Positions 41,801 through 63,037 of a DNA stretch of 64,000 nt are shown here, piece after piece. Every line of letters starts with the position of its first letter. Within the stretch, counting starts at the first letter, position 1. Source of the DNA: a virus; the IMG/VR virus record IMGVR_UViG_3300044701_001468; one strand, 5' to 3'. Made by a program: the position numbers and the translations under genes. Under the pieces are notes generated by a model. That model worked only from the letters and a program-made list of their open reading frames with translations, made no database searches and was not told the DNA's origin.

Positions 41801-43560
41801 CCACCCTTGTCTTGGTTGAATGCAAATCCTTTATAACCCTTCGAGTGCATCGAAGTGTTACCGAAGTTTGAGTTCGAGTTGGTGATTGACATGTCACCGC
41901 CAGACTCAAGTAGGAAGTGATCAGCAAAACCTACAGCAAAGATCGAAACGTTCTGAATGAATGAGTCATCCGAAGCACGAACGTGGAAGTTTCTCCAATC
42001 ATCCTTCCAATATGCATCACCCTTGATGTGATAAGGAGTGGTAGCAAACGCATCAGTTAGAGGTGCCTGATTCCATGTGTTGCTGAACTCATCGTAACGA
42101 ATGAACGCTCTATCGTCTTTCTGTAGTGAAACACCCGTATACTGGGCGATAACCATCGATTTGAAACCAGTTGCCTTGCGACCATCAGCCCAGATACCAC
42201 AAATACCCCAAGTTGAACGAATCGAAACGTTGAAGACGTATGGAGATGCCGATTCTACGCTGTCTACTTCCGCCTGTACGGTGGCATTAGTATCAAGTGC
42301 TGGAGAAGATACAGCAGTGTATGTGGCGCCGCTTAGAAGACCTAAACCAGTGGCAGTGGTTTGAACTCTGTAGGTAAATTCTTTTGGATCAGTTTGACTG
42401 ATAGAATATACTTTGAATACTCCATTCAACGAGGTATTCAATCCATTATTTGTAATGGCAACATATTGCCCTGGGAAAAATCCGTGATTGATTTTAGTTC
42501 TAACTTTTACACTAAGTATACCAGCTGGAGAAGAATCTGTAACTGATACTTCATCTAATCTAACAGCATCAGAAAGTGGTCCAACAATTCTGTTTTCTTG
42601 TACTCTATAATCAAATTCTCTACCACGGATTACCAACAGAGACCATTTAGTATCATCTGTTCCTGGTATAACATTCGTTGAAGATGCACTGGCAATATAT
42701 GCCTTTCCATTGTAGATAACTCTATCACTAATTTGATATGTGGCGCTCGATAACCAAGCATCAGTTACTGGAGTGGTAGAACCTTCTACATATACGTCAT
42801 CAATCGCTGGTTGATAGTCACTGAATACACGAGCAATCTTTCTATAAAGAAGACCTAGATCCTCTCTATCCGCAAAGACAAAGTTTGTCATTTTGTGGTG
42901 AGAGAATTCAGGAATCGCTAAATTGGTAGTGCTGCCAGGTTGAGTATATACTTTACCAATACCAACTGGACTACCAACATTATAAAGTGGTGAACTTGAT
43001 TCTAGATCACCATCAAGAATGGTGAATTGCCAGAAGTAACAACCGCCAGTTACGTTGAAAAGAGCGGTACGAGGAACATCTTTGTCTGCAGGATCTGGAA
43101 CATATAGAGCACGAACCTGAGTTCTACGAAGGTCTGTACCTACGAGAGAAGTACCTCTAGGAATCGTTGCACCACCATCACGACCATTAAATTTGTAGAG
43201 AATATTATTAGGATCGCTTAAATTGAAACTAACATTAGTGTTAGATTCCCACTCATTGGTTGCTTGATTGAATTGAAATACGGGTAACTCTTCTACATCA
43301 GTAACTCCTGGTCTGTTATCAATGTAGTGATTACCAGGCGCCAGCATAATAGTAAACTGGTCAAATCTGTCATTATCTACATCTGGAAGATATGAGAATC
43401 TAGCCGCTTCTAGAAATGCCCTTTGAATGGTTACAAATGGTCTTAGAGGTGAATTTCCCCTATTATCTAAGGCATCTGTAGCATTAAAGTCGTCAGGTGA
43501 AACATAAAGATATTTACCAGTCTTACTAGAAATAAGATTATCTAATCTTGTTAATGGCAT
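32899..43560 (-). CDS. Giant virion structural/tail-fibre protein (3553 aa)
   Basis: Cyanophage-type N-terminus MPLTRLDNL...YVSPDDFNATD..DNRGNS.LRPFVTIQRA; Thr/Ser/Gly-rich; internal repeats; late promoter upstream. Confidence 0.85.
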   Translation of the reverse strand: MPLTRLDNLISSKTGKYLYVSPDDFNATDALDNRGNSPLRPFVTIQRAFLEAARFSYLPDVDNDRFDQFTIMLAPGNHYIDNRPGVTDVEELPVFQFNQATNEWESNTNVSFNLSDPNNILYKFNGRDGGATIPRGTSLVGTDLRRTQVRALYVPDPADKDVPRTALFNVTGGCYFWQFTILDGDLESSSPLYNVGSPVGIGKVYTQPGSTTNLAIPEFSHHKMTNFVFADREDLGLLYRKIARVFSDYQPAIDDVYVEGSTTPVTDAWLSSATYQISDRVIYNGKAYIASASSTNVIPGTDDTKWSLLVIRGREFDYRVQENRIVGPLSDAVRLDEVSVTDSSPAGILSVKVRTKINHGFFPGQYVAITNNGLNTSLNGVFKVYSISQTDPKEFTYRVQTTATGLGLLSGATYTAVSSPALDTNATVQAEVDSVESASPYVFNVSIRSTWGICGIWADGRKATGFKSMVIAQYTGVSLQKDDRAFIRYDEFSNTWNQAPLTDAFATTPYHIKGDAYWKDDWRNFHVRASDDSFIQNVSIFAVGFADHFLLESGGDMSITNSNSNFGNTSMHSKGYKGFAFNQDKGGYITDIIPPKTLSSLNKSKQQYYVLDFPYTRSSSNTNKLYLGSETTRNPEDRPASTVNGYRIGARRNEKIYVKLDNTNVKSAELSPSGFKKWTAAVSTLNPTGGTVFDAAYNKAQDAANLIDANKTFIQSEAFGYILEKYPYLQNRPYVNPNITSETGRYRDARNLILANRTEIIDYAFAQMQTAFPSFTVPGSQNDKCKRDIGYIVDAIAADLYDGGNANMIAATRAYFTNAGAPLSNGLAGEETQSIFAFNRAKDWCKKAISNLLTNKSLLSVTSITSSGTTITVTCSTPHNLTSGTFVTIGGATQTEYNGKYAVLSAGLTATQFRYTAAVAPSVSPATGAYYVSNITIDPVNDDPSVGRFKDSYALINSNRTEIIDTAFSQMQAAFPTFVVPGGNDTKCKRDIGYIVDSVAQDLFWGGNEFTVGAVREYFTLSGTPLSGGLVGEETQSVFAFNAARNLVKQAITNQLTVKNLTISAGPSVAGGGGGNIANTSASSCADVRTTVDNLFAIVTGVITAGTLTNLPAVDNGDWDCANVRNTIDTLVTIINTSLANGNLNGLPTENPGQWSQISEASKCKRDIGYIIEAVTSDLRLGGNENTINAAEAYYTAIPLNTDTTDGNQDGFTLDYIENERPETIDAYNYVRNLAISSMRNHNTYINNATTTSGSAIVTLSSTVGLSIGMRVRSVDAIPTSSSSVVNFTSTIPSTAYIKKIGDGTNGLTSNQIELGTQGSRFNSGTTVNATASSTTVKLYVELTSGLWSTALDPITDSAVIQDYNYLAAGDPSTGAPGGECASTALSITNYFQTISTIINSGVGTVPRVASTLNTGTLAQRSTLFTLTEYDSNGAATTNPHDLETGTPVRLVPRAKAGTNPDKRVIRLPKGFDTNTLYYVIAPGRRTDPFNYATSIGFNGSNQQNLMLATSEENAAAGIYIYSSETDAVDSQVEIDVYQYVLDIKYDLHQYQTGLASGSSTEFETDRPHIFDKPTPNTTLQRVFFRVGSDISGSALPTLSSSFGGTTLSSKVEYYVNYVSSTRFTIHESATVDSGGNLVLSSPVTFQTGSTAKFYTFASKKRSPMKFDPVVGTTASNNNGSWYINTLVSGNEIIPKMKESIFEGRIAPTTDTYYERVVDTRSKEDRVYRLRYVIPKNLKTVRDPLNGFVLKIRTDEKRRLLPQKILLKPTSTGSSVANFVAPVTGEKLGLTTAEQLVLNPNYISTYDSSPAGNPKRVETNSKISFTIQSARKRQISNQNYLELTVFDIGVDNNDYKTKLFTTVKISAPQGGSGNFIGSIPNSNNTNKVTWSGNSSGTAYVHAYFAYQNNYYMILKDFAGNSSIDYNNNVTTTFSQGTGSTKVTATLLEDANSGRSDIANFLYVIEGANVYTMTPGDTLNDDNGVSYTIADVEDVDDFENTYYIFDINTIRRRIFGQQDGVYYLTCLRGDIRPYPTGSGVGENFRNFRFSQPVSKIYPEFYKNDPEWYKGIDTGSATLLDPPATISAADNYVHGLVTVNDSKGSLTKEVVYDLISDSGTKLNTFTGSNVIQAQPGSASAGSEARKISICGDSPYPLEKKLYVELRRPSIARSGNHTFEYLGFGPGNYSTGFPARQEVVLTDTQDFYAQAKREDAGIVFYTGLNSNGDLYIGNRKINAITGEETFLEQAILVESADETEDIGTLVTTFDTPVTFNDIITVSGLEGTKTSTFFCPVAIQSPTMLGAVLNSNALTIYTDTSGKPFADGNYDQRLETNIAGQKTGDITLHQNTISSAVWNMHPRGTQRYTFRGAISNVTPNTTSLYGADQPANAYFNTLAPLASGDVLFKGAQTLFTGSLAWVYANDYITIDNQSSVGVNPQILGIQGNSTGTVIRLNWNTGVTNNTLGITSSTQIRITGATGSLQGVNGVWPVYSSVLDPFASGNAYVNILTNANLPIYTAIPTPNNGYPVDQVAQPSINIARSQTAFKEVGVIGAEALRTETTSIGDYKLGINTVARSAHTAYKTAFVSTETTPRANLDLVGNAFISGKKILSYSTESSTTKTETNQDYAFLVGGDSATPSNISTLRVATTPNGLTNGRVGINATHAQLDRNFVVVGTSRFTGSLTFEDDLAVNGGDLTTTATTFNLLNTTGTATTLNFAGFATTANLFNSATSAQTLNIGNSATTQSLSIGTAATTATLNLHTGATTSTINIGNASSSLTAVSNITIGGAFNNSSGSRLTIRNKNVQLDGDLEVNGGSIKTSATTFNFLNNPGTANVLNIGNFAAVINMGAVAGNTTIRNSLIVNGNITDYGDLTIIGGLRNSSVSVTRASLNTTAAAHTIGSLANLNVTYYEYIDDIDGATNITSITSNTFSVIDNKFYNNDIIRFANISNFTGVTAGVDYYVINRTSNSFQVSTILGGSAVTITTSGTVGGSATLKYTQIDTTGGVPWSSSDTTLPVKNAAGISQFDYLLIDQEIVRVTTPPTSTSPFTMTVSRAVDGTTAAAHLDDTIIYKLNKVTGATYVDPGPIPASALNKTVSSINASTNFLTSAGSNLENGYRVTFTSVGSITGITTTALRYYIVNVSTSGSDQIFQLSETYPVINVVDIGGTSGGAAYTVNGSVINLAEFGGSFKTNDILKIDNEFMIITSINASSPQKLTITDGGTVSPKTVFEVDSTTGNTIIGNPTGTTGNGTGTLLVYDTLTLSGNSATDSTAQKLVVTNGSTAETFTIRTADGNTNIAGTLTVENTITLNGSSTASTQYLTITNGAGTTTFQVDTANGNTSFLGNLAINTNKFTVDASTGDTIVGRYLTVTGVSTATPSSANVSLLINGLGVSNAKPYKFKQDASIDAFGITNYRTSSGGSRWNWFATGSNTDSTAPTLGVNQGYIIRPAGTNTTLILKLPSTAQTGDMIRFVDIGGNLSYQCTLILRAPTGIKVQGDATGSTAGGLGSAWTGGELLVQTPNASFGLIYFGATDGGGVAIDTDAQGWWLMEI

Positions 43561-49561: not shown

Positions 49562-50964
49562 TATTTACTCCCGAAATTATCTCTTATAATTTGTACGTTA
49601 GATACTGCAACGCCACCTCTGTCACTATAAAATTCGTATGAGATGGATTTAATCAAATAAGTTCCACTAAATTGTTCATCATATGCACCTTTAGATGCGG
49701 TAAGTGAAGTTACTACTTGATTTCTTAATAGAATATCAATTTTATCTCCAGCTCGCAAATCTAAATTACATGGTATATTGATATTTAGAACTTGATTTTC
49801 TAATATTGCATTTCTAGATATTGATTGCGCTAATGTGTATGCCCTATAATCTTTGAACTGACTATTAGTTGTACCATTATCTGCTCCATTATAATATGTT
49901 TCCTGATCAATCATTTGCACCAAGATTCTAGATGGAGATTGTGCCAATGACTTGATGTTGTCTGGAATCTTTTCTTCCTTTCCTAAGTGTTTTTGATTAG
50001 AATAATCTTGATCAAGCACAAATAATTTCTCTGTGTATTCTAGTGTTGATGGATTGAAAGTTTGTAACAAAGATGAATAAACTCCGTGACGCATCTTCTT
50101 CAAAATATTAATTTCAGAACCAAATGAATAGTTCAGAATTTTAAATGCATTAGATTTTGCATTTGATTGCTCGTCCTGTGCAAGGGCTTGAGCATATGTT
50201 TTGTGCTTAACTGGTGCTGATATCAACGAATCGATTGATTTGAAAACATATCCATCATACGTTTCGAAAAAATAGTAACCAGCACTACCAGTGATGGTAG
50301 AATCATATCCTGTGTCTGTCTTTCCTTCTTTTGGTTTAGAAGATTTCGGTGTGTTTGAAGAGAGAGGTTGTTGTTGAGGATTAGTTGTAGCAGATATACA
50401 CTCTGGTAGAATTTGTGTTATAACTTCAAAGGGTCTCTTCAAAGAAGGAATAAGTTTCATTGGAAACTTACAAGCTTCAAAGTTTGTGGATGTATCTTTC
50501 TTTGTCTGTAAGTATTCACTCAGAACTCGCTTAGCAATAACGTCTCCACTACCAGCAAAAGTTTTACCAACTCTAACTGTTTCATTTGTTAATGCCTCTT
50601 CAGAAAAAAGATCTAATGTATATTGTTGATAGTTTTTTGAGGAAGCTCGTGCTCTAATTCCGTAGATGATAAAATTATATTCATATATTTTGTCAGAAAT
50701 ATTAGGCGTCTTTATTTTTATAGTAACTTGTTCTGAACCTACTAAAGGAACAGAACTGATTAGATTGATTGCTGTGTCAATCACTATCATTTCTGCCATT
50801 AATGTAGTTGACTCAACGCTTTCATATATTTTAAATGAAGATACTTGTGCTTCTGGACTAGTTCCAGAAAGCATATGCTTTACTCCCTTTGTATCAGTTA
50901 AACTAATCTCAATAGCCTGAAAATTTAAATCTAACATTATCCCACCCCCGATGTAGATAAGCAA
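49561..50964 (-). CDS. Baseplate hub-like structural protein (gp27/VgrG-like)
   Basis: FKIYES.ES...AEMIVIDTAINL...GYYFFETYDGYVFKSIDSL...DLRAGDKI...SGTYLIKSI; located between the tape-like genes and gp5. Confidence 0.65.
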   Translation of the reverse strand: MLIYIGGGIMLDLNFQAIEISLTDTKGVKHMLSGTSPEAQVSSFKIYESVESTTLMAEMIVIDTAINLISSVPLVGSEQVTIKIKTPNISDKIYEYNFIIYGIRARASSKNYQQYTLDLFSEEALTNETVRVGKTFAGSGDVIAKRVLSEYLQTKKDTSTNFEACKFPMKLIPSLKRPFEVITQILPECISATTNPQQQPLSSNTPKSSKPKEGKTDTGYDSTITGSAGYYFFETYDGYVFKSIDSLISAPVKHKTYAQALAQDEQSNAKSNAFKILNYSFGSEINILKKMRHGVYSSLLQTFNPSTLEYTEKLFVLDQDYSNQKHLGKEEKIPDNIKSLAQSPSRILVQMIDQETYYNGADNGTTNSQFKDYRAYTLAQSISRNAILENQVLNINIPCNLDLRAGDKIDILLRNQVVTSLTASKGAYDEQFSGTYLIKSISYEFYSDRGGVAVSNVQIIRDNFGSK

Positions 50965-53660
50965 AGATATGCCGCCAAACCATCAGAGGTTGAACTGCCA
51001 AAATAATTCATATCATCTGATTCATTAGAAACATTTATAGGAGATGCTGCTCCACCACCAGCACTTATCATATTGAATACAAACATGCCATCAGATACAT
51101 CACTAGTTTCTGATGTTGCTGATGGTGCTGATACTGCTGGCGCTGCCTTAGGTAATTTGGGTTTAGGCATCTCTTTATTTGCTGTATCAACAGCAGGAGA
51201 TAAAGAATTAATTGAAGTATTATTTACTTCCCCCAATATATCTTTAAGAGAAGTGAATATAATACCCTGCATTAAATCTGTAAATGCATCGATACCATTT
51301 GTATTTGTTTGCTCAACACCATACAATTTATGAGAACCACCTTTAGCGTAACCAAGTTCTTTCATCATCTCTCTTTGTTTTGCAATTCTAGAAAGAGGAC
51401 TATTTTTATCAGCATAATCAGTTGACTTGGTATTTCTGTGAGTGTCTACAATATTACCGAAGAAATCCCACCAAGGTCTTTGAACTTGTTTACCACCCTG
51501 TTCATATGATTTAATAGTTCCTCCTTGTTCTTTACCACTTGCTGCGCGTGCTTTTTTTGCATCCTTGGATTGTTCTGGAGAAAGATATTTAACTTGTGCT
51601 CCTCTACCAGGAGCATGTTTTTCATACGCTTCAACAACTATTTTGTGTGATCTTCGTAATAAAGCCTCGTTGAGACCTCCTGGTTTTGGATTAGATAAAT
51701 CAACAGGTTGATCAATTCCCAAAAATCCAGCACCTGTTTTAAATACTTCATAGTCACCATTAGTATAATTTAATAGCACTTTGTAGTTTTGGTTATCTCC
51801 CTTATGAACAAAAGGAAAAACTCCTTGTTTAACATTAGTCGCCGTAAGATTTGGTTTTTCTGCTGATGTTCTTCCATGGTCTGCTCCGCTAGTAACGTCT
51901 TCATACTTACCATCCATTGGTTTATTTTTACCATCGGGTTGAGCAGCATTTTGTTGTCTCTGTGAAACTGACCCTGTATCTGGATTAGTTGGATTAGATT
52001 GCGTCTTTTGCTCTTGGGTTGTCTGTGGTGTAGTTTTAGGTGCGACTGGTTTTTCCTTTGTTTTTGCTCCCAAAGATTTCAATGAACCAGATATTAAATC
52101 TTGTAAAAAGTTTTTTCTATCTTTCTGATTGTCTTTAGACGCTGGAAATTTTCCACCCCCAATATTAAGATTGGGAAGCACATTAGACATTCCAAAATCT
52201 CTTGCAAGATTTTGAATATCAGGACCAAGTGCTTGTGATACAGGTGAACCCAGTGGACCCAATGCTTTTATAAAAGTATCTGTCATAGCAAGCATTGATC
52301 CACCAACTGCTTTCATTGAAGCATCTGATGCTAAATTATTGCCTTTGGCATCTGAAGAATTTAAATCAACAACAGCTTCTTTACCTGCCTCACCAATCAT
52401 CGCCCCGCCTTCAGCGAGTTTACCTTCTTTACCATAAAGACCTAGAGTACCCCACGATCCTTTAGTACCACCACCACCTTCTATAACTTGTCTAAAGTTT
52501 TCACGAATGTTTGCATCAGCAGATGCCATGATCTCATTTGATTTATTAATATCACCACCACTCAACACAAATTCTAAAACTGCTCGGAATGGAGCACCTA
52601 TAGTTTCTCCTAATCCAGATTGTAAATCAAGAACTCTTGCAATAGGATCTTCAGTCGCTTCTAATAACTGATCTGGTATCAATCCAGTCTGTGCTGCTAT
52701 GCCTATAGGAGTCAATGGAGGAATCATTAACACCGTGCTCAACAGAGGATTTTTTAATACATCTTTTTTCTCTTTACTATCTAAATCTCTCCACGTATCT
52801 CCCCAGTTACGCATAGCTTGACCAGCATAGCTGGCACCCAGACCAACCCCAGTGACGGCAGCAGCACTCGCCGCTATAGTTCCAGCTCCGACGCCTCCAG
52901 CAGCGCCAGCGGCGCCCGTAGACCCCGTTGCAGCGGCAGCAGCGGGAGTAGCAGCGCCGCCGCCGATACCAAGCATAGAACCTATCCTAGCAAGGGCACC
53001 GCCGCCACTCAGGAAGTTCCATGCAGTCTGTGCTGCATTCCATAAACCTTTTATTGATCCTAAAATATCACCCTCACCTGATACCTTAGAGGATTCACCT
53101 CCGTATAAAGTTTTGCTTTGATCTAATAGATTTTCTTGAGCCTGATATTCAAATGATTCTATCTGATCTACTTGTAATTGCGTTTGAGCATTTAATGCTG
53201 CAGCAATAGATTGAACACCCGAAGATGTAGCGTTTTGAGCTTGGTTCTGAGAATTTAAAAAGAATGCTAATTTAGATAGACCACCCTGTATTGCCGAACT
53301 ATCAGTAAGTAATGATCCAAAACCAACCTTCAGAATTTTTTCTAATCCAGATGCCTTGCTTTCACCCCTTGGTTTACTAGATTTTTTTTCCTTAGGATCC
53401 TTGGTCGGAAGTTTGTGTGTAAAATTATCTCCAAAATTTTTCTTACCAGAAAAGGTACTACCACCTAAGTTGTGGAATAGTGCTTTTGCAAAAAGATTTT
53501 TTTTATCTCTGTCTTTTACTTCGCCGCCTTTCTTTTCTACGCCTTCTTGTCTCTTTTGCTCTTTCTTAGCATCTGAACGAGACTGAACTATTTTATCGTA
53601 TATAATTCCACCAAGGCTTTGACCCTCTCCTGCTGATTGTGCTGCCTCAGTACCGTACAT
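50937..53660 (-). CDS. Tape-measure-like virion protein (paralog C)
   Basis: Ala/Gly-rich TM-like segment; LAEGG/YAKGG motifs; N-terminus shared with 53687..56071. Confidence 0.6.
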   Translation of the reverse strand: MYGTEAAQSAGEGQSLGGIIYDKIVQSRSDAKKEQKRQEGVEKKGGEVKDRDKKNLFAKALFHNLGGSTFSGKKNFGDNFTHKLPTKDPKEKKSSKPRGESKASGLEKILKVGFGSLLTDSSAIQGGLSKLAFFLNSQNQAQNATSSGVQSIAAALNAQTQLQVDQIESFEYQAQENLLDQSKTLYGGESSKVSGEGDILGSIKGLWNAAQTAWNFLSGGGALARIGSMLGIGGGAATPAAAAATGSTGAAGAAGGVGAGTIAASAAAVTGVGLGASYAGQAMRNWGDTWRDLDSKEKKDVLKNPLLSTVLMIPPLTPIGIAAQTGLIPDQLLEATEDPIARVLDLQSGLGETIGAPFRAVLEFVLSGGDINKSNEIMASADANIRENFRQVIEGGGGTKGSWGTLGLYGKEGKLAEGGAMIGEAGKEAVVDLNSSDAKGNNLASDASMKAVGGSMLAMTDTFIKALGPLGSPVSQALGPDIQNLARDFGMSNVLPNLNIGGGKFPASKDNQKDRKNFLQDLISGSLKSLGAKTKEKPVAPKTTPQTTQEQKTQSNPTNPDTGSVSQRQQNAAQPDGKNKPMDGKYEDVTSGADHGRTSAEKPNLTATNVKQGVFPFVHKGDNQNYKVLLNYTNGDYEVFKTGAGFLGIDQPVDLSNPKPGGLNEALLRRSHKIVVEAYEKHAPGRGAQVKYLSPEQSKDAKKARAASGKEQGGTIKSYEQGGKQVQRPWWDFFGNIVDTHRNTKSTDYADKNSPLSRIAKQREMMKELGYAKGGSHKLYGVEQTNTNGIDAFTDLMQGIIFTSLKDILGEVNNTSINSLSPAVDTANKEMPKPKLPKAAPAVSAPSATSETSDVSDGMFVFNMISAGGGAASPINVSNESDDMNYFGSSTSDGLAAYLCLSTSGVG

Positions 53661-53686
53661 TGATAGTATTTACCTTTTAGAAATAT

Positions 53687-56071
53687 TTATTTGGTATTTC
53701 GTAAACGTTTCTCATTCCTATGTTTTAATGGATCATAAAAGACCCTAACAATGGAAGAAGTCACTGATTGTATAGTCTGAATAACTGGTTGTGCCTGAGA
53801 TTTCTGACCAAAGTTATTCACAACTACTTTTGGATTTGTGGAAGTTGATGCTGGAACTTTATTCAAATTTTTTGATCCAGAAAGTATTAATTGTTTTTCA
53901 TTCTTTTCTCTTTCTGGCAATCCTCTGTCTACATTAGCCGCAACGGCATTCATATCACCTCTATTTAATGCAGCATACATTTTAGGAGCACCAGTTCCTA
54001 ATAAATGGGCTGGTTGATTGTAACCATATGCAAGTAGTCCACCTTGTTGTTTGGCAGACATTTTATTCCAATATTTTTTGTACCATTTTTCCCCCTTCAA
54101 TGTAGTCACGTAGTTATTCACTAATCCCGTCAATAAAGAATCTGCTTTTGCTTTTGTTACAACATCTCCTGGTTTAACTGCTTTTGTGCCAGCAGTGATA
54201 GAATCATAATATGTCATGCCCCATCCAATGGTAGTTCTGTCACCAGAAACTCCAGTTTCATAAGCATGTACGGGAGTCGATGCAGATATTTTTGACCATG
54301 GCACTGAAGAAATAACACTAGGTCCACGATTAACAATGTAATCGTTCTTTCCCCTAGAAAGTGAAGATAGTGCTTCATCATGTTTGATTGCTTTAACTCC
54401 TTCCGAAACTCCACCAGAAGCAAATGAAGTTGTTGTTGTGCTAGATCCATGTGCAATTTCTTTCCACCTTTGAATAACACCAAATGGATCTTCCGAAAAA
54501 TCATATTGTCTATTTCGAACAGGGAAAACTTGGAATCCATTTGCTGATGGAACAATAATTTCTTCTCCGTGCAAAGTAACTGGTATTCCTTGAATAGTAG
54601 TATCGAAACCAGATTCTGGTCCAGAAATTAAATATGGAGATAATGGATTTGTATTGTTTCCTTCTTTACCACCTCGCGCAAAAGATTTCTGTTTGACTTT
54701 TTGCACTGCACCCTGAAACTCTTCCCATGTCGCATGTGCTTTATTTCTATATGCACCAGAATCTTGATATGTTTGTCCAGCAGAATTTGCAGGGAGTCCT
54801 CTCCACTCTGCGGCAAGATTCTTCATGAACACATCGTCATTTATCTTTCTTTTTTTCCAATCATTACCTTGTCTTTTATTTTCAATGATCCATACTGCCA
54901 TCTTATCTTGATTGGCAGGACTAAACTTGTCTGTATCTGGATTCAACCCAGCATCTTTTGCTTGGGCAATAGGAGACATGAATTGATATTGCCCCAGAGC
55001 ACCAGAAGAATCTGGATACTTTTGATGATATAGTTGAGCAGCTGCATCTGCTTCTCGTATTGTCATCTCAGTCAATCCATCAATAAATCCTGGTCCACTA
55101 CCATAGTTAACCGCATTATATTTGTGAGTTACTGCTTCAACTTTTTTAATAAGGTCTAGTATTGGTTGCCACTCACCAGTATACGGATCATCATCTTCAG
55201 TTTGTCTCAATATTTCTGGATCAATAAACATACTAAGAAATTTTTCATCATTTAAAAACATCCCCCAAGTTTTAGAAAACTCAACAAGTAAAGCATCTTT
55301 TTTATCTTTGGAAACATCGAGTGGAGATCCCAACAATCTATCAAGATCATCATTTGTTACTCCAAAAGAACTAGCATAAGGATATATCGTGTCCTTTATC
55401 ATTGGTTCGGCAAATGCTGATACTGCTCCAGCAGATTTTATAAGATCGGATAAAATTCCAATCGCAGCAAGAGAAGATGCACGTAATGGCATCGACATAA
55501 CTTCATGAAATGGTAGCGATTTATAACTTGGTTCTGTTTTTCCAGGTACAACACCACCCTCTGCTAATTTTGTCTGAGCAGCACCCTTTCCCCTACTAGC
55601 AACCGCCTTAAAAAGTTTACCACCAGCTTTCTTTAATAAATTTGCCTTCTTTCCCTGTGGTTTGTTTGGTTCTTCAGTTGATGTTGGTTCAGTAGCAACT
55701 TCAGTTACTTGAGGTGTTGGAGTAGACTTTTTCTCTAGCAAAGAACCTGATTGTATCTGATTAAAAGATTGCTGCAGAACATTTCTTTGGGTTAGTAATC
55801 CAGATAATATTTGAACCTCTTTAACTATATCCTTTTCTACCTCTAACCTTTCAGAAACAATTTTATTCTGTATTGTTATAGATTTTCTAATCTCCTTAAA
55901 GGAGAATGAAAAGTTATCAAATGCTTTTTTTAATTGTGATTCTATATCTTGCTTTTCTTTTTTCTCATCTTGTTTACGTGATTCTTGTCTAGACTTTTTC
56001 ATCTCCTGAAAGATGAGTTTGCCTATGCTCTGCCCTTCTCCAGCTGCGATGGATGATTCAGTTCCGTACAT
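53687..56071 (-). CDS. Tape-measure-like virion protein with two lysozyme-like domains (paralog B)
   Basis: E......YNAVN...GALGQYQF...FSPANQDKMA...EWRGLP (muramidase) and HDEA...TTIGWGMTYYD...GDVVTKAKADSLL...LLAYGYN (GH24-like). Confidence 0.7.
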   Translation of the reverse strand: MYGTESSIAAGEGQSIGKLIFQEMKKSRQESRKQDEKKEKQDIESQLKKAFDNFSFSFKEIRKSITIQNKIVSERLEVEKDIVKEVQILSGLLTQRNVLQQSFNQIQSGSLLEKKSTPTPQVTEVATEPTSTEEPNKPQGKKANLLKKAGGKLFKAVASRGKGAAQTKLAEGGVVPGKTEPSYKSLPFHEVMSMPLRASSLAAIGILSDLIKSAGAVSAFAEPMIKDTIYPYASSFGVTNDDLDRLLGSPLDVSKDKKDALLVEFSKTWGMFLNDEKFLSMFIDPEILRQTEDDDPYTGEWQPILDLIKKVEAVTHKYNAVNYGSGPGFIDGLTEMTIREADAAAQLYHQKYPDSSGALGQYQFMSPIAQAKDAGLNPDTDKFSPANQDKMAVWIIENKRQGNDWKKRKINDDVFMKNLAAEWRGLPANSAGQTYQDSGAYRNKAHATWEEFQGAVQKVKQKSFARGGKEGNNTNPLSPYLISGPESGFDTTIQGIPVTLHGEEIIVPSANGFQVFPVRNRQYDFSEDPFGVIQRWKEIAHGSSTTTTSFASGGVSEGVKAIKHDEALSSLSRGKNDYIVNRGPSVISSVPWSKISASTPVHAYETGVSGDRTTIGWGMTYYDSITAGTKAVKPGDVVTKAKADSLLTGLVNNYVTTLKGEKWYKKYWNKMSAKQQGGLLAYGYNQPAHLLGTGAPKMYAALNRGDMNAVAANVDRGLPEREKNEKQLILSGSKNLNKVPASTSTNPKVVVNNFGQKSQAQPVIQTIQSVTSSIVRVFYDPLKHRNEKRLRNTK

Positions 56072-58749
56072 TATCTAATCCTCCTCATTTGATCTATGCT
56101 TTCTACATATTGAGTGCTCATAGGAAGATCTACCACGTTAATTTTTGGTGATGGTGTGGAAGATATTTGTGGTTGAGATTGTGCTGGAATATTTACATTA
56201 TATACTTTTGGTCCTTTATATCCTGGTGCATTATAGTAAGCATTAGGACCAGATATCTGATCAAACGATGAGGTTGGTGCTGGATCTATTGCGTCGCCAA
56301 TGACAGGAAGGTTCAGCACACCAATAAATCTACCACCAAATTTCAGTATTCCTGTTTTAAATGCTTGAGCCATAGTTGGAGTGGCTTTATTCAACAGAGG
56401 AAGGAGAGATTGTGCTTTTGGTCCAGTATATTTTCCAGACAAAATACCTTCAGCGATTCTCAATCCTCTGTTTGCTTGTCGTTCCGAAACAACTGTTGCA
56501 CCCCTGAAAGTTTTAGACGCTTGAGGAACTAACAAATCTAATCGTGGTCCTTGCCCAGGTATAATACCTTTCCATGCGCCCGCCCCACGATAAGTATCAG
56601 CAACCCATCCCTTAGTGCTTCCATACACACCCTTACCAATCATACCAGATTGACCACGGAATCCAGTTGCTCGTATTAAATCAGGAACTCCTTGTTTGGT
56701 TCCATGCATAATTCTTTTTAATGGAACGTGTGATAATCCTGAAGGTTTTTTTAGAATCTTAGATGCGAAATCAGTAATAATTTTAATCCATCCACCCGAT
56801 GCTAAACTTGGTTTGTTTTCATGTGTCCATTCAACAGGATCTATTTGACCACCATTTTGACTGGTTCTAACCTCCCAGTGCAAGTGAGGACCAGTTGAAC
56901 GTCCAGTGCTGCCCAGTGTTCCAATAACTTCACCTGCTTTTACTTTGGTGCCAATATTCAACTGATTAGCTACGTCCTGTAAGTGACCATAAAAAGTGAA
57001 TATCTTTGGATTATCATGTTGAATACCAACTAAGTTACCATATCCACCCCCATTATCTTGAGGCCAGTTTCTATTGATATCAAAGACAGTTCCTGCAAAA
57101 GGAGAAATGATTTTTATACCACGATCACCATCTAAATCGATACCGCTGTGTTGTCTACCCCATCTCCAACCAAATCCAGAAACATATCCTATTTTACCAC
57201 TATCTGATTTTGAAAATGGTATCCATGCTGGTGCTTTTCCTACATTAGTTCCACCCTTGAAACGAAGCCCTTCTCCTTCGGAACCAATTGTTAAAATATC
57301 TTCTGCTATTTCTCCAGAAGTAAGTCCACCACCAGTAATACCACCAGCACCAAAAAAACCAAGATTATTATCATCTAGAAACGTTTTCCATTGTTTATAG
57401 AATGATTTTTTATCTTCTTCATTATCTTCAACACCAGCATATGCTTTACCACCAAGCAAAGAAGTAACTATAGAATCGGTTACCCCCATCAATCCAGATA
57501 GAGGACCGATTAAACCACGAATACCAGCATTAAAAAATCCTGCTAGTGGTCCAAGCGCAGTTAAAAATTCTCCTATCTTTGCAACAACCGCACCCAGCAT
57601 TGCAGATGCTGGTTTGATCATCAACTGAGCAAGTGAATTACTATACCTTTCTATATCTTTGGACCCAAATATATCTTTTCCGTAGTTCCTATTGAGAGGA
57701 ATGACTGCGGTTCCTGGTTTTAAATTTCCTGTTGTTGGTTTATCGTATATACCAGGCTCCAAATAATCAGCAGAACTTCCCAAGTCCCCAGTTACTATAC
57801 CACCTTTTGCTAGCTTAACTTGAGAATTTGATTGTGATATTGTATCTACATTTTCATCGGTTACCGATTCAATTATATTTTCAGTGACCTGCGATTCTCT
57901 GTCATCAAAAAATTCTTTATATGTTTGAATTTGATTTCCTAAAATCTGATTGACTGACTTAAACTGTGTCAGTATCTTTTTAGATTTTAATAATTGTGCA
58001 TTGTATTCGGTAGTCTGATTATTTAAAGTTTTTACAATGCCATCAAGAGATTTTTTATACTTATCAAATACTAATATAGTTTCAGTAGAAAGTTTATTCG
58101 GTACTGATATGCGTTTAGATTTCTTTTGTTTTTCTTCTTCTGATTTTACCTTAGGTGGTTCTGCAGCTGCAACAGATTGTTGCAACTCTTCTGGTGCTGC
58201 TGGTGGTAACATTGGAGGTGTTTTGCCAGCATCATATGATTGCTGCACCACTTTCAAATGTTGTATCAGTGGTTTGGATGGAACACTATAACTCCCAGAC
58301 CAAGGATCAACTATTTTTTGCTGTGGTTGTATATCATTTTGCTTTGGTTTATTCAAAGAAGAAGCAATCTTCTTTTTATTTTCCTGTATTTCTTTTACTC
58401 TTGCTTCAACTTCAGCCGCTTCTATCTTATCATTCGTTTGCTTACGAAATGGTTTCTCAAGGTATTCCTCTACCAACCACTCCTGATATTTTTGTAGATT
58501 TTCATACTCTTTAGCACCGCCAGTATTATTAAACTGAGGATATCCTCTTGGATCTTTTTTTAAATTTTCTATTAACCTATTAGCATCCGCTTCAGTTAAG
58601 TTGACAAAAGATGAATAATGAGTTCCATCATCCATCTTTCTACCAGTCAACCTAGCTTTAAGAAGTTTCCAAGTTCTCTCACCAACCTTGGCGGTATACC
58701 AAGGTATTTTAGGATCTAATACTCCTTCTGGTGGTTGAGGTAAACTCAT
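56071..58749 (-). CDS. Tape-measure-like virion protein with M23 peptidase and an ART-like C-terminal domain (paralog A)
   Basis: GFGWRWGRQHSGIDL...GYGNLV...YGHL...GSTGRSTGPHLHWEVR (M23 HxxxD/HxH); HGT...GF...GKGVY near 56620-56706. Confidence 0.8.
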   Translation of the reverse strand: MSLPQPPEGVLDPKIPWYTAKVGERTWKLLKARLTGRKMDDGTHYSSFVNLTEADANRLIENLKKDPRGYPQFNNTGGAKEYENLQKYQEWLVEEYLEKPFRKQTNDKIEAAEVEARVKEIQENKKKIASSLNKPKQNDIQPQQKIVDPWSGSYSVPSKPLIQHLKVVQQSYDAGKTPPMLPPAAPEELQQSVAAAEPPKVKSEEEKQKKSKRISVPNKLSTETILVFDKYKKSLDGIVKTLNNQTTEYNAQLLKSKKILTQFKSVNQILGNQIQTYKEFFDDRESQVTENIIESVTDENVDTISQSNSQVKLAKGGIVTGDLGSSADYLEPGIYDKPTTGNLKPGTAVIPLNRNYGKDIFGSKDIERYSNSLAQLMIKPASAMLGAVVAKIGEFLTALGPLAGFFNAGIRGLIGPLSGLMGVTDSIVTSLLGGKAYAGVEDNEEDKKSFYKQWKTFLDDNNLGFFGAGGITGGGLTSGEIAEDILTIGSEGEGLRFKGGTNVGKAPAWIPFSKSDSGKIGYVSGFGWRWGRQHSGIDLDGDRGIKIISPFAGTVFDINRNWPQDNGGGYGNLVGIQHDNPKIFTFYGHLQDVANQLNIGTKVKAGEVIGTLGSTGRSTGPHLHWEVRTSQNGGQIDPVEWTHENKPSLASGGWIKIITDFASKILKKPSGLSHVPLKRIMHGTKQGVPDLIRATGFRGQSGMIGKGVYGSTKGWVADTYRGAGAWKGIIPGQGPRLDLLVPQASKTFRGATVVSERQANRGLRIAEGILSGKYTGPKAQSLLPLLNKATPTMAQAFKTGILKFGGRFIGVLNLPVIGDAIDPAPTSSFDQISGPNAYYNAPGYKGPKVYNVNIPAQSQPQISSTPSPKINVVDLPMSTQYVESIDQMRRIR

Positions 58750-58919
58750 TTATTTTTTCTGTTATACTCTTCTATGTAAGCATTTAACATAGCAATGTAT
58801 GCCTGTCTTTCCCATGGCATCATATTATCTAGTTCAGTTAACGTAAATTTATGATGATACATCAAATTAAAATTTGATTGGTAATGATTCAATAATGATT
58901 CATGAAACAGGCTTATGCG
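58746..58919 (-). CDS. gp51: gp51-like baseplate/tail assembly ORF, probably the -1 frameshift extension of gp26; first ATG only at 58862
   Basis: Read manually: RISLFHESLLNHYQSNFNLMYHHKFTLTELDNMMPWERQAYIAMLNAYIEEYNRKNK; MxHH..L.E...M.PWER is the gp51 signature. Confidence 0.8.
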   Translation of the reverse strand, partial: RISLFHESLLNHYQSNFNLMYHHKFTLTELDNMMPWERQAYIAMLNAYIEEYNRKNK

Positions 58920-59629
58920 AAAAAATTTACTAGTCCTTCAATCGTATATTCAGATTCAACTTCTGTATTGGGATTGGTTATCTTAAATGAATGGGATAAC
59001 TTAGGCATTGTAGCAAAGAACTCTTGTATCTTAGCAAATTGCTTTGATGTTAGACCTTCTAGATATGCTTCAATGTCTTTTTTGTTGGTAGTTTTTGCTT
59101 CAAAAACTTCGTCTCCAGTGAAAACTTGATCAACAGAATTAACAACGATATCAAATACTTCTTCAGCTGATAGAGTTTTCATCATGATCTGTGTATCAAT
59201 AAAGGAATTAACTCCAGGATATTTCATCACCACACCACTATCATCATTCAACATGATTTTATTTGTGTGACCTTCTTGTTTAATAACTTGAATGTCTTCA
59301 ACGTTGATGACGTAATTAACTTGTGTCTCATCATCATCTCTACAAGTAATCTTTAGTTGAATTTCTTCTCCTGCAGATTTACCTCTGATATTTAAAAAGA
59401 TGTATTCAATATCAAAACTTGGCAACTCTTCTATCTTGATACCACGAGTCTGAATACAATTTTTTAAAAGATCAACGACAGCATTTTTGATTTGCTTTTC
59501 ATCTTGTGACTCCATAGCCACGAGAAGAATTTTTTCTTCCTTGACTAAGAATGGTCTGTATTTAATTGTTTTCCCTGTGGATGGTAATTGCAACTCATAA
59601 GAGGGAACGGGTGGACTTGGTAAAGGCAT
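58913..59629 (-). CDS. gp26: Baseplate hub assembly protein gp26-like
   Basis: MPLP...PSYELQLPSTGKTIKYRPFLVKEEKILL...FDIEYIFLNIRGKSAGE...EGL.NFF. Confidence 0.9.
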   Translation of the reverse strand: MPLPSPPVPSYELQLPSTGKTIKYRPFLVKEEKILLVAMESQDEKQIKNAVVDLLKNCIQTRGIKIEELPSFDIEYIFLNIRGKSAGEEIQLKITCRDDDETQVNYVINVEDIQVIKQEGHTNKIMLNDDSGVVMKYPGVNSFIDTQIMMKTLSAEEVFDIVVNSVDQVFTGDEVFEAKTTNKKDIEAYLEGLTSKQFAKIQEFFATMPKLSHSFKITNPNTEVESEYTIEGLVNFFA

Positions 59630-60771: not shown

Positions 60772-61452
60772 ATGGCAAAGGGATTCAAAAAAGAAGATAA
60801 ACAAAAAACAAAAGGTTATAATACTCTGTTCGAAAGAGTAAAAGAAAAATCAGGAAACGAAGAACAGACTTGGCAGTGGTATAGAAAGACTGTTCGAACA
60901 ATGGCGTTGGAATATAAACAACAACCAGACAAAACATTAAGAGATGAACGCAGAGATAAATCAGACGACGAAGAAAATAAAGATGCAAATCAATTAAGAA
61001 GATACGCTAGGGTCGGTAGGTTATTTCTCTTTGAATACAAAGCAAAGATGAAGTATCTACCATACTACGATACATTTCCTCTGGTATATGTGATTAAAGC
61101 AAATGCAGATCATTTCTTTGGTGCTAATTTGCATTATCTAGAACCGAGAAAAAGAGTTCTTGCAATAGAGAAACTAAAAAATGATCGTATTGACTTACCT
61201 CGCTCATGTTTTCATAAATATATTCTAGACCATGTAGATGGATTCCTATTAGATCTTGCTCTCGATGAATGGGATACTGCTATTGCATTGCCAGTGGAAC
61301 ACTTTGTTAAGGAAAGAGGCAATACATTAGTTCCATACAAATCATCTGATGTGTGGAAAGAAACCAACGAAAAATATAGTGATCGAATAAAAGCAAAAAG
61401 AATCATTAGAGGTTATGGTAGACCAGAGGACATCGAGGTAGTAAGACAATGA
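60772..61452 (+). CDS. gp2: DNA end-protector protein gp2
   Basis: GRLFLFEYKAK...LPYYDTFPLV...FGANLHYL...FHKY. Confidence 0.9.
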   Translation: MAKGFKKEDKQKTKGYNTLFERVKEKSGNEEQTWQWYRKTVRTMALEYKQQPDKTLRDERRDKSDDEENKDANQLRRYARVGRLFLFEYKAKMKYLPYYDTFPLVYVIKANADHFFGANLHYLEPRKRVLAIEKLKNDRIDLPRSCFHKYILDHVDGFLLDLALDEWDTAIALPVEHFVKERGNTLVPYKSSDVWKETNEKYSDRIKAKRIIRGYGRPEDIEVVRQ

Positions 61453-62357
61453 GTATTTTAAAATATCCCAAAGATATATCATCAGAATATTATATAAAAT
61501 TTCAATTTTATACTTACGAACCAGCATATAGTGCTAAGGCTTCAGTAACTGCCCAGGGTTCCACAACTAATGTAACTCAAGGATATAATGCTTCTCTAGA
61601 CATAGCAAAAAAGAAATCTGATCTTCCAGACATTTATTTACCTATGCCAGCAGAAATAGGTTCTCAGTATGTTGGTCAGTGGGGAGGTCAAAATATGAGT
61701 TCGTTAGCATCCACAGCATTAACTGCAGTATCAAAAGCAGCTGGGATGTCTGGTGCAGCCGCACCAAAAGCAATAATGGACGCATTAAAAAATCCAAACA
61801 ACAACGCTGCAACAGGAGCTGGTATAGCACTAGAACAAGCTTTTAAAACAGCGAAAGATTTTTTAAACAATACTCCCTTAATAGGAGCAAATTTAACCAC
61901 AGATCAATTATTAGCATTAGGAACCAATTCTATTTTAAATCCCAACACAGAACTTTTATATGGTGGAACTGATTTGAGAACTCATGGATATAAATTTAAA
62001 TTAGTGCCAAACAGCGATAGCGAAGCAAGAAATATAAAACAGATCGTAACCATATTCAAACAAGCAGCTTTACCAAAAAGAGAATCTTCTGTTTTTGGGT
62101 TATCAGCAAGAAACTTTATTGGAATACCTGATCTATGCAAAGTAGAATTCATCAAAAGAGGTGGAGGAGACAACAAAAATCTACCAAAGTATAAACTTTC
62201 AGCTATCTCAAATGTAGATGTAAATTATATAACTGATGGTCAATACATAGAATATGATGATGGGTTTCCACTAGGAATAGAACTAACGTTAGCATTCAAA
62301 GAACTCAAACTATTGTTCTCTGAAGAAATTGGCGAAGGTAATACGGATTATAGGTAA
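61449..62357 (+). CDS. gp48: Baseplate tail-tube cap gp48
   Basis: LKYP...IYLPMP...NPNTELLY.G..LR.H.Y.FKL.P.S..EA..I..I...FK...IPD...V.VNY..DG...LTL.FKE. Confidence 0.88.
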   Translation: MSILKYPKDISSEYYIKFQFYTYEPAYSAKASVTAQGSTTNVTQGYNASLDIAKKKSDLPDIYLPMPAEIGSQYVGQWGGQNMSSLASTALTAVSKAAGMSGAAAPKAIMDALKNPNNNAATGAGIALEQAFKTAKDFLNNTPLIGANLTTDQLLALGTNSILNPNTELLYGGTDLRTHGYKFKLVPNSDSEARNIKQIVTIFKQAALPKRESSVFGLSARNFIGIPDLCKVEFIKRGGGDNKNLPKYKLSAISNVDVNYITDGQYIEYDDGFPLGIELTLAFKELKLLFSEEIGEGNTDYR

Positions 62358-62362
62358 CACTC

Positions 62363-63037
62363 ATGGCATTTTTCAACAGACTTCCAGACGTAGAGTACGA
62401 TTTAAAACCATTAGTGTTTCCTTTTTCGGAACAACAATATACTCTTGCAAAAAATTTCTTCAGAAGATACAAACTATCTGAAGGATCATTCAATTACACC
62501 ACGTTGTTCACCGAATACGTGATGACAGATAATGATAGACCAGATACTATATCAAATAAATTCTACAAGACACCAGAATATGATTGGGTAGTATTAATTA
62601 CTAATAATATTATCAATACTTATTTTGATTTGCCTGTAAAAGAATCATATCTATATGATATGGTAAACGAAGCGTATAAAAACACTCCAGGATCTCAACA
62701 ATATCCAGCAGATAGAATTCATCATTACGAAACATACGAAATTAAAAATTCATCTGGCAAGGTAGTTCTACAAAAAAATATAAAAGTAGAAAAATCTTTT
62801 TATGATTCACCATTTAAGTATTACGATAATGGTTCAATAGTTACGATACCTGGGAACCAAGTGTCAACCCCAGTAACAAACTACGAATACGAAAAAAATC
62901 TAAATGACGAAAAAAGAAAAATTTATGTATTGAAACCTGAGTTTGTGCAAGAATTTATTTCTCAATATGAAACTGGTATGGTGTACTCAAGATCTAATTC
63001 TTACATAGATAGAAAAACAAAGCGATCTGGAATCTGA
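62363..63037 (+). CDS. gp53: Baseplate wedge gp53
   Basis: FFNRLPDVEY...KNFFRR...RPDTIS.KFY...YDWVVLITNNI...IHHYET...EYE..LND.KR.I. Confidence 0.92.
   Translation: MAFFNRLPDVEYDLKPLVFPFSEQQYTLAKNFFRRYKLSEGSFNYTTLFTEYVMTDNDRPDTISNKFYKTPEYDWVVLITNNIINTYFDLPVKESYLYDMVNEAYKNTPGSQQYPADRIHHYETYEIKNSSGKVVLQKNIKVEKSFYDSPFKYYDNGSIVTIPGNQVSTPVTNYEYEKNLNDEKRKIYVLKPEFVQEFISQYETGMVYSRSNSYIDRKTKRSGI

Follow-up and report, generated by a model that had tools for sequence, protein, structure and literature searches.

Programmed -1 frameshifts produce gpG and gpGT in phage lambda and chaperone products in other long-tailed phages (Levin et al. 1993; Xu et al. 2004, 2013, 2014; summarised in PMC5009743). In phage T4, gp26 and gp51 are both listed as hub assembly chaperones (Leiman et al. 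2010, Table 2, PMC3004832), and gp51 is required for assembly and is not found in the particle (Leiman et al. 2010, PMC3004832). Here we examine how these systems compare with a gp26 homologue and the small gp51-like open reading frame (ORF) that follows it in an uncultured T4-like marine phage. The locus lies in a stretch of 64,000 nucleotides of virus record IMGVR_UViG_3300044701_001468 (hereafter the window), taken from a 103.7-kb IMG/VR contig estimated to be 54% complete. Near its end the gp26 frame carries a slippery heptamer, T TTT TTC, at which the -1 frame opens into a gp51-like extension. We put the probability that a programmed -1 frameshift yields a gp51-type long form in this phage family at about 0.85, judging from comparative sequence evidence, and place it a little lower where the rate in this particular phage is concerned. 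No report of a gp26/gp51 frameshift was found in the literature, with subscription journals mostly outside the search, and the slip appears to be an unreported addition to the known tail-chaperone frameshifts.

The zero-frame product of the gp26 gene matches PF12322 over the full length of the profile (227.9 bits against a Pfam gathering score of 24.5; profile positions 2-219 of 219). Its coding sequence ends ...GGA CTA GTA AAT TTT TTC GCA TAA, with the TAA at 58915..58913, and a single sense codon (GCA) separates the heptamer from the stop. An earlier note, made from the sequence of the window alone, had proposed this heptamer, its register and this gene end, all of which proved correct on the sequence. 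Read in the -1 frame, the message continues as R-I-S-L-F-H-E-S-L-L-N-H-Y-Q-S-N-F-N-L-M-Y-H-H... and ends at a TGA (58748..58746). The conceptual junction is ...TIEGLVNFFR followed by ISLFHESLLNHYQSNFNLMYHHK, and the short form terminates ...GLVNFFA. The long product would measure 237+57 = 294 aa, the length that had been anticipated. The -1 frame does run for 19 codons before its first ATG, as the same note had stated; this ATG is codon 20 (58862..58860), and no purine-rich stretch or evident Shine-Dalgarno (SD) sequence precedes it. The only earlier canonical start in the -1 frame of the window is a TTG at codon 10 (58892). Upstream, that frame is closed by a stop four codons before the heptamer, with no start codon in between. 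The extension matches phrog_634 at E 2.5e-20 (profile positions 58-113 of 121), scoring 73.9 bits when read from the slip site and 51.6 bits when read from the ATG. Coordinates of these and surrounding features are collected in Table 1.

Table 1. Features of the gp26/gp51-like locus and its surroundings, in window coordinates.
Feature	Position	Strand	Remarks
gp26 zero-frame product, short form, 238 aa	59629..58913	minus	PF12322 T4_baseplate, E 1.6e-67; phrog_150 baseplate hub, E 9.6e-72
Slippery heptamer T TTT TTC, read as X XXY YYZ by the gp26 frame	58925..58919	minus	AAT TTT TTC at 58927..58919; both tRNAs could re-pair in the -1 frame
-1 frame extension, gp51-like, 57 codons (RISLFHE...NRKNK) plus TGA	58746..58919	minus	phrog_634 'baseplate hub assembly catalyst'
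Glu-Gly codons GAA GGA	58934..58939	minus	Site of the SD-like GAGGG of relatives, 9 nt upstream of the heptamer; weakened in the window
Weak candidate hairpin	58884..58903	minus	15 nt after the heptamer; minimum free energy -3.9 kcal/mol, z -0.8, not significant
Tail-tube-fold gene, 210 aa	59667..60299	minus	PF23849 Phage_TTP_2, E 5.1e-36; phrog_45 tail tube, E 3.2e-42; directly upstream of gp26
892-aa gene, Peptidase_M23	56071..58749	minus	PF01551, E 1.1e-24; its ATG overlaps the TGA of the extension (ATGA)
gp2, gp48 and gp53 homologues	60772..63037	divergent from gp26 group	T4-type baseplate/hub module

Conservation of the heptamer was examined in two sets of junctions. The close set comprised 83 junctions (the window, S-PM2, P-SSM2 and 80 IMG/VR contigs; gp26 identity 49-63%), and the distant set eight T4-like phages at 21-33% identity (phiM7, C48C1, KVP40, Yut2, Aeh1, Ci1, OLIVR6 and Menlow). 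TTTTTTC occupied the identical X XXY YYZ register in all 83 close junctions, and exactly one codon lay between heptamer and stop in 81 of them. The T run was always T6 followed by C and never longer, and the codon ahead of it invariably ended in T, whether it encoded Ser, Asn, Ala or Asp (AGT, TCT, AAT, GCT or GAT). A second conserved Phe-Phe pair within gp26 served as control and was spelled TTC-TTT in 41 cases, TTT-TTT in 31, TTT-TTC in 7 and TTC-TTC in 3. Phe codons elsewhere in the gp26 genes were TTT in 75% and TTC in 25% of cases, and TTTTTTC occurred just twice elsewhere in 59.6 kb of gp26 bodies. By these counts, conservation of the heptamer at the nucleotide level is in excess of what the protein requires.

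The motif extends well beyond the close relatives. Seven of the eight distant phages kept T TTT TTY, each followed by an open gp51-like -1 frame (...P-W/F-E-R-E...): KVP40, Aeh1, Ci1, Yut2 and OLIVR6 carry GAT TTT TTC, and phiM7 and C48C1 carry T TTT TTT within T7 and T8 runs. Klebsiella phage Menlow (Ackermannviridae) has ATT TTC, which retains the tetramer U_UU.C, and its gp51-like -1 ORF is unannotated. In E. coli, -1 slippage is efficient on the heptamer U_UU.U_UU.C, and U_UU.C comes second among the tetramers (Sharma et al. 2014, PMC4066793). In every relative examined, the -1 frame is free of stops from the heptamer to the gp51-like ORF; a stop there, like a heptamer that varied, had been named in the earlier note as grounds for giving up the proposal. 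We also observed that the gp51-like -1 ORF of Aeromonas phage Aeh1 (record L087, ~2203-2380) is unannotated, and that the one in Menlow (L089) lies after position 2304.

If the extension is made by slippage it needs no start codon of its own, and in many lineages it has none. An ATG 2 nt past the gp26 stop, which is the annotated start of gp51 in S-PM2 and P-SSM2, was present in 65 of the 83 close junctions. The remaining 18, the window included, have CTN, GTC, ATT or TTG instead, with the first ATG 18-19 codons downstream or absent. The same ATG is missing from four of seven distant phages (Aeh1, Ci1, C48C1 and OLIVR6). Altogether at least 21 lineages lack a start codon for the small ORF; in L040/L059/L081, L010/L014, L003, Aeh1, Ci1, C48C1 and OLIVR6, no ATG, GTG or TTG occurs before codon 16-19. 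At none of the loci examined did the -1 frame contain an ATG, GTG or TTG between its preceding stop and the heptamer.

The stretch that would be left untranslated by a late start nevertheless carries a coding signature. Over the 16 codons from the gp26 stop to the first ATG in the ATG-less set, entropy was 0.77, 0.58 and 1.27 at codon positions 1, 2 and 3. Pairwise differences in these codons were synonymous in 547 of 1167 cases (47%) in the -1 frame, as against 127/1213 and 102/1148 (~10%) in the other frames. On the gp26 tree, the presence or absence of the ATG changes at least eight times (at least four of these changes being forced by well-supported branches), and the deepest branches are ATG-less. 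Together, the ATG-less lineages, the -1-frame signature and the tree suggest that the Met at the annotated start of gp51 is not required for initiation; it resembles one of several hydrophobic residues allowed at an internal position. This ATG (S-PM2 3680, P-SSM2 3726) sits in the 5' arm of a hairpin and is replaced by Leu, Val or Ile codons in ATG-less lineages. It may encode an internal residue or may permit a third, free small product.

The peptide so encoded is itself well conserved, with a mean column identity of 69% and invariant N16, F17, P35 and E37, and an exhaustive HMMER search returned 1965 relatives at E <= 0.001. Forms of ~78 aa in that search were set aside as gene-caller ORFs that start at non-conserved upstream codons of the -1 frame. 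Queried by word index against longer proteins, the window's -1 peptide gave no match.

The heptamer is flanked in relatives by elements of the kind that stimulate frameshifting. In the ATG-bearing majority, a 10-bp hairpin begins 6 nt after the heptamer (mean minimum free energy -12.2 kcal/mol, z -3.3), and 77% of the cells of this helix are paired, compared with at most 44% in slid controls. Covariation is evident at pair 27-41 (UA 37, AU 13, GC 8) and pair 25-43 (GU 50, UA 9). Seven ATG-less lineages have hairpins of other sequence in the same place, at -10 to -13.5 kcal/mol. RNAalifold, run over all 74 junctions, recovered just four base pairs because the ATG-less lineages have either different hairpins or none. 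Upstream, relatives carry an SD-like GAGGG at a Glu-Gly pair, at a constant 9 nt from the heptamer; of 66 distinct sequences, 64 spell this Glu as GAG (GAG GGN), a codon used for 27% of the other Glu residues in gp26.

The same spacing bears on transcriptional slippage, by which RNA polymerase would insert an extra U at the T6 run, so that a small share of mRNAs would encode the identical fusion in frame. The site is indeed a homopolymer, with runs of T7 and T8 in phiM7 and C48C1, and genes avoid U7 runs in every frame, an avoidance that may result from transcriptional slippage (PMC4066793). Against this, the run in the close set is fixed as T6 plus C in one codon register throughout, and the SD-like element 9 nt upstream and the hairpin 6 nt downstream stand at the distances of ribosomal frameshift sites. 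Furthermore, the ATT TTC tetramer of Menlow suits slippage of tRNAs and not of polymerase, and six T are few for efficient polymerase slippage. We consider slippage at transcription quite improbable.

A number of observations weigh against the proposed frameshift, or at least against its strength in this phage. The heptamer is not enriched in the window: TTTTTTC occurs 26 times, with 28 expected from shuffles, and the significance of the site therefore rests entirely on its conservation in relatives. The window, with GAA, is among the two exceptions to the GAG rule, and its candidate hairpin is the weak one listed in Table 1; its nearest relative, L003, likewise lacks a hairpin. Given the GAA codon and the weak hairpin, the rate of frameshifting in this phage could be low. 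T4 gene 26 keeps AGAGG upstream though it has no heptamer; the SD-like element may accordingly be incidental in part. The location of the annotated ATG in the 5' arm of the hairpin also fits classical translational coupling, and the hairpin alone consequently cannot separate frameshift stimulation from coupling. Lastly, the HMMER search turned up just three in-frame fused proteins, all from metagenomes in ENA (P0002, P0003 and P0132; ...FF|RIS...); they are single-contig singletons and were not counted as evidence; they may be rare natural fusions or T6-to-T7 homopolymer errors.

The chance-level count and the lack of strong stimulatory elements in the window are what one would expect if heptamer and open -1 frame were functionless and the small ORF a decaying remnant. 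Such a relic would hardly preserve a conserved peptide with 1965 relatives, variability concentrated at third codon positions and a motif that is invariant across phage families. The comparative data strongly disfavour chance or decay, to which we give next to no credence.

A more serious competitor dispenses with the frameshift and has the small ORF translated alone as a ~40-57-aa peptide, through stop-restart coupling or a weak or non-canonical start, with the U run acting as a leader element (e.g., for S1 binding). The ATG 2 nt past the stop does offer most close relatives a way to make a free 57-aa peptide with no frameshift, and the conserved hairpin encloses it in the manner of coupling by start-codon occlusion. 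The window itself has CTG (codon 4) at the homologous codon and TTG (codon 10) six codons later, in addition to the ATG at codon 20. However, the codons that precede any start in the ATG-less lineages are under purifying selection in the -1 frame, the codon that stands in for the ATG is L, V or I and resembles an internal hydrophobic residue, and hairpins persist in seven of these lineages. A leader element would need neither the exact X XXY YYZ register nor the C, and the T4 version of the extension occurs solely at the C-terminal end of a gp26-like protein. We therefore regard independent initiation as unlikely, although it fares somewhat better than slippage at transcription.

In T4, a natural counterpart of the long form exists. 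Genes 26 and 51 of T4 are adjacent and divergent, and their products are 20% identical. T4 gp26 (208 aa) matches PF12322 over residues 1-206 and terminates three residues beyond its FF. T4 gp51 (249 aa) matches PF12322 over residues 1-201 (E 3.9e-52) and phrog_634 over residues 147-246 (E 1.2e-23). When ten conceptual -1 fusions (291-338 aa) were aligned with T4 gp51, every junction fell in one column and the alignment was gapless there. By profiles and alignment, T4 gp51 is a full gp26-family protein that carries the same extension within a single ORF. Copy number differs with the heptamer: among complete genomes, PF12322 has one copy in the heptamer carriers S-PM2, P-SSM2, KVP40 and Aeh1 and two in T4, whose gene 26 spells FF as TTC TTT and has no heptamer. 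One-piece long forms of the T4 type occur in 1375 phage records, most of them from phages that infect enterobacteria and Acinetobacter. We also observed that CxxC...CxxC zinc-ribbon cysteines, retained just before the G-L-x-x-F-F end in gp26 of KVP40, Aeh1, Ci1, Yut2 and T4, are lost in cyanophage-type gp26 (58916..59010 of the window, minus strand).

Structure prediction hints at a link between gp26 and tail assembly chaperones (TACs). The AlphaFold2 model of gp26, built from 48 sequences, had a mean predicted local distance difference test (pLDDT) of 92.8 and a predicted template modelling score of 0.86. In a structure search of 48,161 chains, its three best matches were 3KLU (YqbN, Z 6.8), 2OB9 (HK97 gp13, Z 6.7) and 3FGX (Rbstp2171, Z 6.2), scores that lie below the search tool's caution line of 8. 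All three cover model residues 1-~91, with 85-86 residues aligned at a root-mean-square deviation of 3.9-4.1 A, and the next match reached Z 4.2. HK97 gp13, B. subtilis YqbN and G. stearothermophilus Rbstp2171 are the three solved tail assembly chaperones (PMC9603447). A Foldseek comparison of the model with the Protein Data Bank (PDB) gave no match at E <= 0.001, with 2ob9 at rank 17 but with the top probability in the list (0.63), and a profile search of PDB sequences returned nothing meaningful. The models are suggestive of a TAC-like fold in residues 1-~90 of gp26. For the extension, AlphaFold2 predicted three helices (residues 9-23, 27-31 and 35-56; pLDDT 76).

A chaperone function of the G/GT type for gp26 and gp51 is plausible and, on balance, the better guess. 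The earlier note had taken the two for a frameshifted chaperone pair, a view that is strengthened by the T4 gp51 paralogue with its extension, by the relation of gene copy number to the heptamer and by the suggestive fold match to the solved TACs. With a narrower preference, we favour a scenario in which gp26 and gp51 play the part of G/GT in T4-like phages, the frameshift is the ancestral and still most widespread arrangement, and gene 51 of T4 arose through a derived duplication that took the place of the slip.

We infer the following sequence of events. Most ribosomes would stop at the TAA and release the 238-aa short form. Some would slip back one base, with tRNA-Phe on TTT and TTC re-pairing with TTT TTT, and would read 57 codons of the -1 frame, yielding a 294-aa long form composed of the gp26 body and a helical gp51-like tail. 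The short form would correspond to T4 gp26 and the long form to T4 gp51, the two being encoded by paralogous genes in T4 and its close kin. By analogy with gpG and gpGT of lambda, both forms would bind tape measure or hub proteins through their common TAC-like N-terminal domain, and the extension would provide the long form with a further contact that is needed at lower dose.

The surroundings of the locus are those of a tail and baseplate module. In order, the tube-fold gene, gp26 and the small gp51-like ORF are followed by genes for an 892-aa M23 protein, a 794-aa lysozyme-domain protein and a 907-aa protein; beyond the last lie a tail protein, a gp5-like hub/lysozyme protein and a gp27-like protein. 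The counterpart of the tube-fold gene is annotated as tail tube or gp54-like tube initiator in relatives, and it likewise neighbours gp26 in phiM7, C48C1, KVP40, Aeh1, Ci1 and OLIVR6. Tape-measure matches of the 892-aa protein in PHROG come solely through its M23 domain, and BLASTP detected no similarity to T4 gp29 or gp27; we treat this protein as a candidate tape measure or hub protein. The 907-aa protein matched neither a protein family nor a PHROG. In T4, the gp29 gene lies three genes after gene 51. In line with the V-G-T-H-like order proposed for the window, the tube-fold gene directly precedes gp26, as in lambda; on the downstream side the tape measure is a candidate only. The three large proteins (892, 794 and 907 aa) occupy 50937..58749 on the minus strand, between gp26/gp51 and the gp5-like gene; one of them may be the tape measure, though without similarity to T4 gp29 or gp27. 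A single ORF of 3553 aa (32899..43560, minus strand) also lies within the tail/baseplate module and adjoins genes resembling those of short tail fibres.

Should gp26 and gp51 prove to be the short and long versions of a single chaperone, made by a frameshift in other phages, hub assembly in T4 could be read by analogy with lambda G/GT, the tail-chaperone frameshift of long-tailed phages would extend to the T4 superfamily, and the essential but long-obscure gp51 of T4 would acquire a defined role. Hundreds of annotated 'gp51' mini-genes would then be mis-called C-terminal extensions, and an annotation fix would be due for small 'gp51 / baseplate hub assembly catalyst' genes that have been given inconsistent starts or missed altogether (as in Aeh1 and Menlow). 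More generally, the locus would represent a deeply conserved recoding site across several phage families, including abundant marine cyanophages, and would show that a pair made by frameshifting and a pair encoded by two genes can replace each other in nature.

Among the described systems, E. coli dnaX (PMC6787027, PMC5009743) resembles the relatives in the three-part layout of its signals, an SD-like element, a slippery heptamer and a downstream hairpin; in the relatives these are GAGGG 9 nt upstream of the heptamer, the heptamer itself and the hairpin 6 nt past it. The dnaX signal differs in its heptamer (A AAA AAG as opposed to T TTT TTC), and the two flanking elements are weak in the window. 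Slippage here would extend the protein, whereas in dnaX it truncates it. With lambda G/GT the locus shares a predicted -1 slip on an X XXY YYZ site near the 3' end of a chaperone gene, which would give short and C-terminally extended forms, the position of that gene behind a tube-fold gene, a possible TAC-like N-terminal domain, products with a role in assembly and, in the case of T4 gp51, absence from virions. The lambda heptamer is G GGA AAG, and that of the window is T TTT TTC, with the stop one codon past the slip site and an extension of 57 aa; there is no detectable sequence similarity to the lambda proteins, and the downstream tape measure is a candidate only. Compared with typical TACs, gp26 is about twice as large and has an extra C-terminal domain of ~150 residues; its identity to the solved TACs is 4-10%, and their structures cover just its N-terminal third. 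The T4 pair is the closest counterpart: it belongs to the PF12322 family, its short form ends just past FF, its gp51 is colinear with the -1 extension of the window, and it is set in the same hub/baseplate gene surroundings. What T4 accomplishes with two divergent paralogous genes that lack the heptamer, the window would accomplish with one gene and a slip site.

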